A DNA stretch of 64,000 nt from Candidatus Latescibacterota bacterium (GTDB lineage: Bacteria > Latescibacterota > UBA2968 > GCA-2709665), in assembly GCA_965116875.1 (NCBI GenBank), contig OZ220733.1:3168001-3232000 (forward strand). Direction: 5' to 3'. The position numbers were made by a program, and so were the translations under genes. Below are positions 45,540-49,071 of this stretch, piece by piece. Within the stretch, counting starts at the first letter, position 1. Each line of letters begins with the position of its first letter. Below the pieces are notes generated by a model. That model had not been told where the DNA came from, ran no database searches, and saw only the letters and a list, made by a program, of their open reading frames with translations.

Positions 45540-46595
45540 CTATTGCTCCTCAGTCGTTGCCGTGTCGTCCGGATCGGTACCCTGATCGGTCCTCGTCTGA
45601 TCATCAAGCCTGCGTTTTTCTTCTTCGCGTCTGCCCAGTTCCAGGATGGCATTCCGGTATTTTCCGCTGGATTTCCTCGCGTAAGCTTCCTTCAGTGCGG
45701 TCCGAGCCGGATCGAACCGGTCCGAATACATTAAGCTCAGACCAAGATCGTAATAGGCCTTGTGGACTTCCGGTGACCTGGAATAGGCCTCCGTCGCTTC
45801 CTGAAAGACGTTGACCGCGCCATCCCAGTTACCGGCCTGGACCATTCTGAAGCCGCGTTCCAGTTCCGGCATTTCCTTGTCGGTTTCAAACGACACATTT
45901 ACCCGTTCGGTATACGGCACGATCATCCGCTCGATGGCCCGTACGATATCCGAGCGGCATTCCGCGAAGAGTCGCCTGCGGGCGGCATTGTCGATTCTTG
46001 CCTTCGCCGGCGTGTCTCCTGATGTCCTCATCGTTTCACGCCTGGAAAAATTCCTGCTGGCCAGTATCCTGGATGTTCGCAAGTCCACGACTTTCAGTTG
46101 AACTTCCACGTGCGCGGTACCCTTGCGTTTGTATTTCTGCCCGGTGGCTCCCTTTTCCGTCTTTCTGTTTTTCTTCTGAACGTCTTCGACGATTTCCTCT
46201 TCGTCGTAATCGTATGCCAGGATATCGCCCGAGATGAGGACGACGTTGCCGTTGTCGTCTTCCCGGCTGTGCCCGGCTTTCAGGCTCTCATAATCGAGAA
46301 GTTCAAATCGATCGGACCGTGCAAGGATCCGCGACACCTCCGCGGCGAATCGTCGGATCCAGGTGTCTCTGGATTCCACGCCTTGCAGGAATTTATTCAA
46401 TCCGTCCAGTTTCGATACGAATCCGCTCCCCGCTCCCTTGATTTCACCGATCATGATCCTGTCATACTCGCTCAGGTTGATTTCAGCCGGACGGGTGACG
46501 AGAATGGAGACGTTCCTTCCCGCACAACCCGTGATCCATCCCGAGACGACGAAGGCTGACAGGAGAATGAGATTGCACGTACACTTTCTGTTCAT
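45540..46595 (-). CDS. Putative lipoprotein with C-terminal TPR
   Basis: Lipobox ITGC; TPR-like KAYYDLGLSLMY. Confidence 0.65.
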   Translation of the reverse strand: MNRKCTCNLILLSAFVVSGWITGCAGRNVSILVTRPAEINLSEYDRIMIGEIKGAGSGFVSKLDGLNKFLQGVESRDTWIRRFAAEVSRILARSDRFELLDYESLKAGHSREDDNGNVVLISGDILAYDYDEEEIVEDVQKKNRKTEKGATGQKYKRKGTAHVEVQLKVVDLRTSRILASRNFSRRETMRTSGDTPAKARIDNAARRRLFAECRSDIVRAIERMIVPYTERVNVSFETDKEMPELERGFRMVQAGNWDGAVNVFQEATEAYSRSPEVHKAYYDLGLSLMYSDRFDPARTALKEAYARKSSGKYRNAILELGRREEEKRRLDDQTRTDQGTDPDDTATTEEQ

Positions 46596-46719: not shown

Positions 46720-46956
46720 TCATACGCGTTTGGCGACCTCGGGCTGGATCTCATCGTATTCGGGAAAGCGGCCCTCTTTGAGCTTGGAGAACGCGAGTTC
46801 GCCGTCGATGGTGACTTCAAAACGTCCGCCGCCGGAGGGGATGAGCGCGAAGCTCTCAATGTCCTGCTTGAATTCTCTCAGAAGCCTGTCCGTCAAACTG
46901 ACGGTCTGATCTTCGTAGCCTCAGGCCGCGCAGTATTCGATGTCGATTCTGGGCAT
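46720..46956 (-). CDS. Rdx family (SelW/SelT/SelH) selenoprotein, CxxU, 78 aa; in-frame TGA at 46923-46921 read as Sec
   Basis: RBS AAGGAGG; MPRIDIEYCAA-U-GYEDQTVSLTDRLLREFKQDIESFALIPSGGGRFEVTIDGELAFSKLKEGRFPEYDEIQPEVAKRV carries the Rdx motifs IEYCxxU, GxFEV and GRFP. Confidence 0.9.
46881..46914 (-). promoter_or_regulatory. Bacterial SECIS hairpin
   Basis: mRNA CCGUCA-GUU-UGACGG with G-containing apical loop 22 nt after the UGA; lower GAAG/CUUC pairing. Confidence 0.7.
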
Positions 46957-46984
46957 GTGGCGCCTCCTTGACGTCTTCGGATGA

Positions 46985-47036
46985 AAGATGAGTAGAGGAG
47001 TGAAGAGCGAGGAGAGAGGAAAGAGGAGTGAGTAAC
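46985..47036. repeat. Degenerate heptamer array, inverted relative to the 45-nt array
   Basis: + strand GAGTAGA GGAGTGA AGAGCGA GGAGAGA GGAAAGA GGAGTGA GTAACGA. Confidence 0.7.
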
Positions 47037-47090
47037 GATAAAGAGCGGATCCGGAAACGCGAATGGAAAGAGGAGTGTGAGGCCTTTGAC

Positions 47091-47405
47091 TCGCCTTCTC
47101 TCTTTTCTCACTTCTCTCCGCTCTCTCCTCGATTTTCGCCTTCTCTCTTTTCTCACTTCTCTCCGCTCTCTCCTCGCTTTTCGCCTTCTCTCTTTTCTCA
47201 CTTCTCTCCGCTCTCTCCTCGCTTTTCGCCTTCTCTCTTTTCTCACTTCTCTCCGCTCTCTCCTCGATTTTCGCCTTCTCTCTTTTCTCACTTCTCTCCG
47301 CTCTCTCCTCGATTTTCGCCTTCTCTCTCTTCTCACTTCTCTCCGCTCTCTCCTCGATTTTCGCCTTCTCTCTCTTCTCACTTCTCTCCACTCTCTCCTC
47401 GATGT
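47091..47405. repeat. 7 x 45-bp tandem repeat, pyrimidine-rich on + strand
   Basis: Unit TCGCCTTCTCTCTTTTCTCACTTCTCTCCGCTCTCTCCTCGATTT at 47091, 47136, 47181, 47226, 47271, 47316, 47361; each unit is six heptamers plus 3 nt. Confidence 0.95.
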
Positions 47406-47414
47406 CCACTGTCT

Positions 47415-47443
47415 AATATATCCCGTCCGGCCATGATTGTCAA
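47415..47443 (-). promoter_or_regulatory. sigma70-type promoter for the repeat-selenoprotein transcript
   Basis: Minus strand TTGACA-N17-TATATT; predicted start site about 47408-47409. Confidence 0.7.
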
Positions 47444-47481
47444 TGTCAGGCCCGTGGTATCGGTGTATATGGGAAATCCGC

Positions 47482-47510
47482 TTGACCGTCAACCTCGCGA
47501 AGGTTAGATT
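47482..47510 (+). promoter_or_regulatory. sigma70-type promoter of the carboxypeptidase operon (divergent)
   Basis: TTGACC-N17-TAGATT, 50 nt upstream of ATG 47560. Confidence 0.55.
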
Positions 47511-47559
47511 GAGGCGGCATTCCAGACCGATGTCGGCAAGGTAAAAAAGGAGAGGTACA

Positions 47560-49071
47560 ATGTCTCCGGAGCGGGCTTACGACGGCCTCATCGGCCGGTG
47601 GAAGGAACTTCATTTGCTGGAGTCCTGCGCGGCCGTGCTGGGTTGGGATGAACGCACGTATATGCCCCGCGGCGGCGCGGCGCACCGTGCCGAACAGCAC
47701 GCCCTGATGGCCGGGATGGCGCACGACCGCGCAACGGCGCCCGAGGTGGGGGATTTGCTGTCGCGCATCGAGGAAGGCGATGAGCAACTCCCGTCCGATT
47801 CGGCGTCCGCCGTAAACGTCAGGGAAATCCGGCGGGAGTACGACCGAAGGACGAAGTTGCAACGGTCACTGGTGGAGGCGCTTGCGAAGGCGACGACGTT
47901 GGCGGAGCATGCCTGGCAGGAGGCGAGGGAGAAATCGGCGTTCGAGCTGTTCCGGCCGGAGTTCGAGGACGTCCTGCGGCTCACCCGGGAGGTGGCGGAG
48001 GCCCTGAAGACCGGAGGTTCGGCCTACGACGCGCTTCTGGACCGGTTTGAACCCGGTGAGACCTCACGGAATCTCAAAAGGGTGTTCGGGGCGCTCCGGG
48101 ACGAACTGGCTCCCCTGGTTGCGGCCATCGTGGATACAGGCAGGGAGCCCGACGCGTCGATTCTGACGCGGGACTATCCCGTGGCAAAACAAACGGCGTT
48201 CGGCGTCGCCGCGGCAGAAGCCATCGGGTTCGACTTCGAGCGCGGGCGGCTGGACGAGACAGTGCATCCTTTCTGCACGGGGATCGGTCCGGGCGATACC
48301 AGAATAACCACCCGGTACGACCGCAACCAGTTCGCGCAGGCTTTCTTCGGGACGTTGCACGAGGCGGGTCACGGCCTGTACGACCAGGGGCTGGACGCCG
48401 CGCATTCCGGGACACCGATGGCTGAGGCCGTATCTCTGGGAATTCACGAGTCCCAGTCCCGGATGTGGGAGAATTTCGTAGGGCGCGGCAGTGCGTTCTG
48501 GACGCACTTTTTCCCGAAAGCGCGGGATGAGTTTCCCCCGGCGCTGTCGGATGTATCGTTGGATGCGTTCTATTTCGCGGTCAACGACGTGCGGCCGTCG
48601 TTCATCCGTGTGGAAGCGGACGAGGCCACGTACAATTTGCACATTCTGCTGCGGTTCGCGCTCGAGGAGGCGCTGGTGGAGGGCGATCTGGCGGTGGCGG
48701 ACGTTCCCGGCGCGTGGAACGAGCGGTTCGAGCGGGATTTCGGATTGAAGCCGCCGGACGATGCCCGCGGATGCCTGCAGGACGTACACTGGAGCGCCGG
48801 GTTGATCGGATACTTCCCTACCTATACCCTTGGTAACCTGTATGCCGCTCAGTTTTTCGAAGCGGCCCGAAACGACCTGGGCGATCTCGACGGACAGTTC
48901 GCCAAAGGCGAATTCGGTCCGCTGCTGGGTTGGCTGAGGGAAAGGATCCATCTGCACGGAAAGCGCTATCGGGCAACGGAACTGGTGGAGGTGGTTACAG
49001 GGAAACCTCTGGGTCACAGGGCATTGATGATGCATCTGAAGGCCAAATTCGGACCGCTGTATGGGGTCTGA
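47560..49071 (+). CDS. Carboxypeptidase Taq (M32)
   Basis: HPF, DTRITT, HEAGH, IHESQ, IRVEADE, QDVHW, GYFPTYTLG. Confidence 0.95.
   Translation: MSPERAYDGLIGRWKELHLLESCAAVLGWDERTYMPRGGAAHRAEQHALMAGMAHDRATAPEVGDLLSRIEEGDEQLPSDSASAVNVREIRREYDRRTKLQRSLVEALAKATTLAEHAWQEAREKSAFELFRPEFEDVLRLTREVAEALKTGGSAYDALLDRFEPGETSRNLKRVFGALRDELAPLVAAIVDTGREPDASILTRDYPVAKQTAFGVAAAEAIGFDFERGRLDETVHPFCTGIGPGDTRITTRYDRNQFAQAFFGTLHEAGHGLYDQGLDAAHSGTPMAEAVSLGIHESQSRMWENFVGRGSAFWTHFFPKARDEFPPALSDVSLDAFYFAVNDVRPSFIRVEADEATYNLHILLRFALEEALVEGDLAVADVPGAWNERFERDFGLKPPDDARGCLQDVHWSAGLIGYFPTYTLGNLYAAQFFEAARNDLGDLDGQFAKGEFGPLLGWLRERIHLHGKRYRATELVEVVTGKPLGHRALMMHLKAKFGPLYGV

Follow-up and report, generated by a model that had tools for sequence, protein, structure and literature searches.

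The window, a stretch of 64,000 nucleotides corresponding to C1:3168001-3232000, belongs to the source genome G000 of a Candidatus Latescibacterota bacterium, which is assembled as one contig (C1) of 5.45 Mb and is 97.7% complete. On the minus strand of the window, a gene for an Rdx-type selenoprotein is preceded by a promoter-like site, a purine-rich tandem array, a pyrimidine-rich arm and a Shine-Dalgarno (SD) sequence, while a carboxypeptidase gene diverges on the plus strand. From the distal neighbor toward the selenoprotein gene, the features are:

47560-49071, plus strand: divergent neighbor, M32 carboxypeptidase (PF02074, E 2.1e-179), anchoring the synteny of the intergenic region
47443..47415, minus strand: promoter-like site TTGACA-N17-TATATT, 11/12 matches
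47091-47403, minus strand: 45-nt purine-rich tandem array of 7.0 copies (Tandem Repeats Finder), the left arm of a hairpin element
46994-47180, minus strand: hairpin core, in which the last two units, the loop and the right arm are predicted by folding to form one long imperfect stem
46994-47090, minus strand: loop (GTCAAAGGCC...) and pyrimidine-rich right arm of about two units' length (inverted repeats I1-I7)
46995-47000, minus strand: terminal CUCCUC, the unpaired remainder of the main stem according to a folding series of 5' truncations
46963-46969, minus strand: Shine-Dalgarno AAGGAGG, read from the sequence
46720-46956, minus strand: Rdx/SelW-like selenoprotein gene of 78 codons (PF10262, E 1.8e-21), ATG at 46954-46956
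46881-46914, minus strand: candidate SECIS stem-loop with apical stem CCGUCA/UGACGG in the centroid structure, 7 nt after the UGA

The CAAU motif of the Rdx protein has its U encoded by an in-frame TGA at codon 12 (46921-46923), and a single in-frame TGA is retained in the best Rdx match of 40 of the 41 genomes of the order. Machinery for selenocysteine decoding is encoded in the genome (SelB and tRNA-SeC), and the reading of the Rdx TGA as selenocysteine is sound on sequence grounds. The energy of the candidate SECIS stem-loop taken alone is not significant (z -0.55). Besides, an in-frame TGA also occurs in another Rdx-family gene at G000:C1:711797-712018 (61% identity), which most congeners possess as well. 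The gene downstream of Rdx (45540-46595, minus strand) encodes a 351-aa protein with an N-terminus that looks lipoprotein-like by eye, a TPR region at the C-terminus and weak similarity to DUF6340 and CsgG; most of its Pfam matches, including DUF6340, are under the curated cut-offs, with only TPR_14 and CsgG reaching theirs.

Transcription from the promoter-like site is predicted to start near 47408-47409, and the array begins 11 bases behind this site. In the 1.4 kb scanned, four promoter-like sites were found versus 0.4 expected from shuffles. The array has a period of 45 with 98% matches, 0 indels and a score of 591 in Tandem Repeats Finder, and its minus strand consists of 89.5% purines, with 14 GGA in 313 nt (two per unit), 7 GAGGAG and 6 GCGGAG motifs. 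The 45-nt unit is itself built on a sub-period of about 7 nt (lag-7 autocorrelation 0.61). The DNA triplex potential suggested originally is not supported, the longest unbroken purine run being only 16 nt. Variants of the unit are ordered along the array, units 1-2 differing from units 3-7 and units 5-6 bearing AGC instead of ATC. The right arm corresponds to the unit in inverted and diverged form and contains CTCCTC four times. Over 46 nt, its complementarity is 74-76% with five of the units and 71-72% with the other two; the inverted repeats I1-I7 span 46-49 nt at 71-76% complementarity.

When folded, only the hairpin core stands out (-76.4 kcal/mol, z -2.82, with 3 of 200 shuffles folding as well), the entire 470-nt leader folding no better than its shuffles (z 0.40). 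A terminator scan gave no terminator-like site on the minus strand within the leader, and attenuation by an intrinsic terminator was dropped as an explanation on this ground. Comparison with Rfam yielded 16 matches, all far under their gathering scores (plant miRNA precursors, Hsp83 3'UTR, snoR125), which mirror the long hairpin and the low complexity, so that no known RNA family applies. The copy in the window bears no gene and sits between a promoter and an SD sequence, not between two genes. The anatomy given by the original prediction is thus largely corroborated: the near-consensus minus-strand promoter before the array, the array of 7 x 45 nt and the promoter-leader-SD layout before the Rdx ATG are all real, as is a pyrimidine arm with several CTCCTC motifs. 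What had been described as a spacer of about 55 nt, however, is part of the two-unit right arm, whose pairing partner is formed by the last two units.

At about seven other loci of the genome, the units of the array recur at 88-96% identity; a three-unit query gave 19 matches at E <= 10, and about 8 loci remained after merging. All loci read share their build, loop and pyrimidine arm being common to them and the purine units numbering one to seven, and the window array is the longest of the family in its genome. By nhmmer, the right arm is also found at C1:2747878-2747981, at 3457454-3457549 and three times in 441338-441890. Within the genus, the family is present in 7 of the 15 genomes compared, including all six that carry the element in the Rdx leader. 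Scanning one genome per GTDB species for the exact pattern returned four stretches in three records only, these being metagenome-assembled genomes titled Candidatus Latescibacterota or Gemmatimonadota.

A full-form sibling is located at G000:C1:2747860-2748710, where units are present on both sides of a PF05635 gene encoding a four-helix-bundle protein annotated as '23S rRNA intervening-sequence protein' (C1:2748179-2748490, E 2.6e-36); loop and arm of this sibling are 88% identical to those of the window over 206 nt. Congener G014 shows the same layout, with a cassette of at least five units at 45-nt spacing. Moreover, immediately before the arrays at the loci 3240, 3457 and 3749 stands the end of the gene found in the full-form sibling, of which only the last 17-27 nt are kept. 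The two other PF05635 genes of the source genome are likewise wrapped in repeat arrays, each with a unit of its own. Across the genus, 26 loci out of 31 matches were surveyed, five fragmentary matches being left out, and the order purine array, gene, purine array, pyrimidine arm is clear in 8 of the 26. A search of the window copy for the 3' end of PF05635 found no remnant, and the frames across its array gave no Pfam match. Its descent from a PF05635 cassette is suggested by the identity of units, loop and arm, and the element is probably related to the flanks of PF05635 'ribosomal intervening-sequence' four-helix-bundle genes. Among titles and abstract openings, by which the literature was judged, no published description of repeat-flanked PF05635 cassettes outside rRNA was found.

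The individual surroundings of two PF05635 genes in the source genome show further duplications. At G000:C1:3462400-3463450, tandem copies of the last approximately 90 nt of the gene lie on both of its sides, each copy joined to AT-rich TTCTTAA-type repeats, so that a module of gene end and repeat is duplicated several times. The third PF05635 gene, at G000:C1:910100-911050, is placed between GAAGGAA-type purine arrays and the matching pyrimidine arm, and a fragment of its own coding sequence is repeated downstream.

For two of the dispersed copies, filled and empty orthologous sites could be compared within the genus. The neighbor context was read from the empty-site alignments, as lists of long ORFs are too noisy in this GC-rich genome. 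At the 3457 site (G000:C1:3457451-3457640), a 234-nt element is present in three of 15 genomes (G000, G005 and G014), while in five (G004, G008, G003, G002 and G007) the flanks are only 6-11 nt apart; the remaining seven genomes have other or diverged spacers. The 3749 site (G000:C1:3749735-3749905) is filled in G000, with 171 nt, and in G003 and is empty in 12 of 15, G006 being scored as neither. Here, the flanks overlap by 3 nt in six empty alleles (CTA, corresponding to a TAG stop on the coding strand), which may represent a target duplication, and the junctions at the 3457 and Rdx sites are ambiguous in this respect. Both the 3457 and the 3749 site are short spacers reaching from the TAG stop of one gene to the ribosome-binding site of the next. 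In the G014 orthologue of the 3457 site (G014:C1:1514155-1514712), a right-arm piece of about 82 nt is amplified about 6-7 times in tandem, and either arm of the element is hence able to expand. G006 has a different insert of 214 nt in the spacer orthologous to the 3457 site; it shares a module of about 30 nt (hairpin AGTCTT..AAGACT, then ACGCAAGATGC) with the tail of the 3749 insert of G000.

For the Rdx leader, the source genome was compared with 14 congeners. All 14 show synteny of Rdx with the divergent M32 carboxypeptidase gene, whose 5' end lies on the upstream side of the Rdx promoter. Every one of the 15 genomes retains the promoter (TTGACAA...GATATATT) and, ahead of the start codon, the motif (A/G)GGAGGCGC, with SD and start codon at the canonical place. 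Nine of the 15 leaders are free of the element; behind the same promoter, they extend for 73-75 nt from the -10 box and show no repeat. In the six filled leaders, about 27 nt of native leader are replaced and no clean insertion is seen. Unit number differs between relatives, as had been suspected, with seven units in the window, two each in G004 and G003 and about 1-1.5 in G005, G008 and G014. According to match strands and reading of the sequence, the element has the orientation of the window in G000 and G004 and the opposite one in G003, G005, G008 and G014. As a palindrome of purine arm, loop and pyrimidine arm reads purine-first on either strand, this layout is intrinsic to the element and uninformative on selection. 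The closest filled orthologue, G004, is devoid of the terminal CUCCUC heptad. In five of the six filled leaders (window 47409-47420), AG comes right after the -10 box, yielding TATATTAG, whereas TAG is found at this position in none of the nine empty ones; this TAG echoes those at the 3457 and 3749 sites.

In the Rdx leader, the element is confined to a young subclade of the genus, in which both orientations occur. A locus tree from the flanks of the Rdx site, with the leader excluded and all 15 rows included, unites all six filled genomes with the empty G010 (support 99/99); inside this clade of seven, G010 is sister to the filled G014. The history of the site may consist of one insertion followed by inversion and loss or of repeated insertion into a hot spot, the tree rejecting neither.

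The arrangement just upstream of the SD had led to the proposal that the CUCCUC arm pairs with either the SD or the array, so that the number of units tunes selenoprotein translation. This was modeled with contiguous 5' truncations of the real window leader retaining 0-7 units. Mean predicted pairing probability of the SD is 0.82, 0.75 and 0.74 at 0, 1 and 2 units, respectively, and 0.26-0.31 at 3-7 units; the predicted release of the SD at three or more units would be due to spare units competing for the terminal CUCCU. Hence, the alternative pairing holds in silico for the window allele. Its effect on the SD is not recovered in the orthologues, however, where predicted SD pairing amounts to 0.38-0.98 in filled versus 0.51-0.97 in empty leaders and shows no trend with the element, and the switch by unit number is confined to the truncation series of the window allele. 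The empty Rdx leaders share a CACCTCGCC-type motif able to pair with the SD region (predicted P 0.51-0.97), and Rdx may have had an anti-SD leader already before the element took its place.

Considering all this, array and inverted arm are most likely a gene-less copy of a dispersed, probably selfish family of hairpin repeats and not a leader dedicated to the selenoprotein. Such a stray element is indicated by the occurrence at several loci, by filled versus empty orthologous sites and by the sibling flanking a PF05635 gene. A genome-wide repeat insertion, the very finding named beforehand as speaking against the original prediction, is what the about 8 loci and the presence in 7 of the 15 genus genomes amount to. 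A repeat-tuned leader built for the selenoprotein is accordingly largely abandoned, with nine of 15 genus genomes lacking the element and the six filled ones carrying it in both orientations. It is still conceivable that the inserted element was co-opted, surplus purine units titrating the CUCCUC near the SD and slippage setting Rdx translation, because the window array is the longest of the family in the genome and frees the SD in silico. Promoter and array directly adjoin, unit number ranges from seven in the window over two in G004 to one in a contig of sequencing run X4, and the truncations with 3-7 units show the SD considerably freer than those with fewer (0.26-0.31 versus 0.74-0.82). 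Nevertheless, this reading is unlikely: its prediction is purely thermodynamic and does not extend to the orthologues, four of the six filled leaders have the other orientation, G004 has no terminal CUCCUC heptad, most leaders of the genus do without the element, and the latter also resides in unrelated spacers elsewhere. A bolder version would have gene-less, MITE-like forms of intervening sequences (IVS) landing immediately before ribosome-binding sites, in short transcribed spacers that follow a TAG stop or directly behind a promoter; at Rdx, one of them would have replaced a native leader hairpin and its purine array would act as length-dependent anti-SD decoy, rendering selenoprotein translation phase-variable with a threshold near three units. 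We regard this as quite improbable.

Sequestration of a CsrA- or Hfq-type regulator by the GGA-rich, ARN-like array had also been put forward, and the 14 GGA in 313 nt would suit such a sponge. Its GGA motifs, however, lie in a purine tract and are not displayed in hairpin loops, the array is missing in nine of the 15 genus genomes, and the one-contig, 97.7% complete genome gave 0 matches to CsrA (PF02599) and 0 to Hfq (PF17209), while the same searches were positive in 3 and 5 of 14 reference genomes, respectively. With neither protein found, the sponge has practically negligible probability. The same can be said of a coding function, either as an N-terminal Rdx extension of 15-residue repeats starting from a GTG at 47409 or as a separate repeat protein. 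The 45 nt of a unit do equal 15 codons, and an open frame of 162 aa (46921-47409, minus strand) runs in frame with the Rdx ATG, the leader having no in-frame stop. This reading becomes very unlikely because all of the other five filled orthologous leaders carry in-frame stops; furthermore, the frame has no Pfam match, all 15 genomes keep SD and start codon in canonical position, and purine-rich DNA is stop-poor by composition, with two of three frames open on each strand. The open leader frame is probably incidental, produced by the richness in purines together with the 45-nt period. As for the count of seven, it might be an assembly artefact in an otherwise real element. Sequencing runs were examined as Logan contigs only, and the contigs of the best-matching runs X1 and X2 stop at both array edges, none spanning the array. 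Against this stand the assembly of the genome as a single contig, the ordered variants among the internal units and the G014 cassette, a sibling with at least five units at 45-nt spacing, which makes an artefact very unlikely. In run X4, a 240-nt contig of depth 2 and about 95% identity joins 47090 to 47361 and corresponds to a 1-unit allele. Contigs of the RNA run X10 comprise pieces of arrays, at least one of them continuing into the flank of another genomic copy; this run also covers 47453-47631 but not the Rdx gene and has no bearing on transcription either way.

If the array and arm are a stray hairpin element, as we prefer to read them, the conserved promoter would transcribe through it, and the last two units would form an imperfect duplex with the right arm, each arm being about 85 nt long. 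Like the stems that close rRNA intervening sequences, it would be a likely substrate of RNase III, for which the host genome has a gene (PF14622, E 2.9e-34). Cleavage would leave a mature Rdx mRNA with its 5' end near the SD. Slippage or unequal recombination could have produced the five surplus units; alternatively, the four-helix-bundle gene could have been lost and the two arrays on its sides fused. If Rdx translation responds to unit number at all, this response would then be a by-product and not a selected function.

Since the repeat before the selenoprotein gene is most likely a stray copy of a genome-wide element, no selenium-specific regulation is to be read into the array. For the family of '23S rRNA intervening-sequence protein'/Avd-like genes, the locus suggests that repeat arms persist and vary without the gene. 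In sister lineages, one and the same spacer holds these arms in either orientation, and unit number shifts quickly, to seven, two or about one at the single Rdx site. Spread and RNase III processing of the element are testable here on a simple and conserved unit of promoter, leader and gene.

Leaders that sequester the SD are known as translational riboregulators and RNA thermometers. The window leader resembles these in that its CUCCU can pair with the SD in silico. Unlike them, it is not conserved, being without the element in 9 of 15 genomes, its pairing partner stems from a repeat insertion, and no ligand or signal is implied. Closer are MITE-, REP- and BIME-type repeats, which are short, non-coding, palindromic, dispersed in transcribed intergenic DNA and polymorphic between strains, with occasional side effects on mRNA stability or translation. 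The element shares with MITEs the presence at several unrelated loci and the filled versus empty orthologous sites, and departs from known MITEs in having arms that are tandem arrays of variable unit number and in its tie to a four-helix-bundle gene; no cognate transposase such as a RAYT was seen.

The nearest counterpart appears to be the 23S rRNA IVS of Coxiella burnetii, which is described as a selfish element and has an S23p four-helix-bundle ORF, a terminal stem of 28 bp at which RNase III cuts and heptamer repeats that vary in number between strains (PMC4990558). The window element likewise has complementary terminal arms predicted to form a long stem (71-76% over 46-49 nt) and heptamer-type sub-repeats in the arm, present at the Rdx site in a number of seven, two or about one; the PF05635 ORF is here found in the sibling copy at C1:2748179-2748490, and the host encodes RNase III. 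In contrast to the 23S rRNA IVS, however, the element resides in an mRNA leader and in operon spacers between protein genes and not in rRNA, and its cutting by RNase III is predicted by analogy. Furthermore, the window copy differs from the Coxiella IVS in being without an ORF, in the organization of its heptads into a 45-nt higher-order unit and in the five surplus units of its left arm. As far as can be read from sequence, the window copy is a gene-less, arms-only variant of an IVS-type element with a 45-nt higher-order unit.
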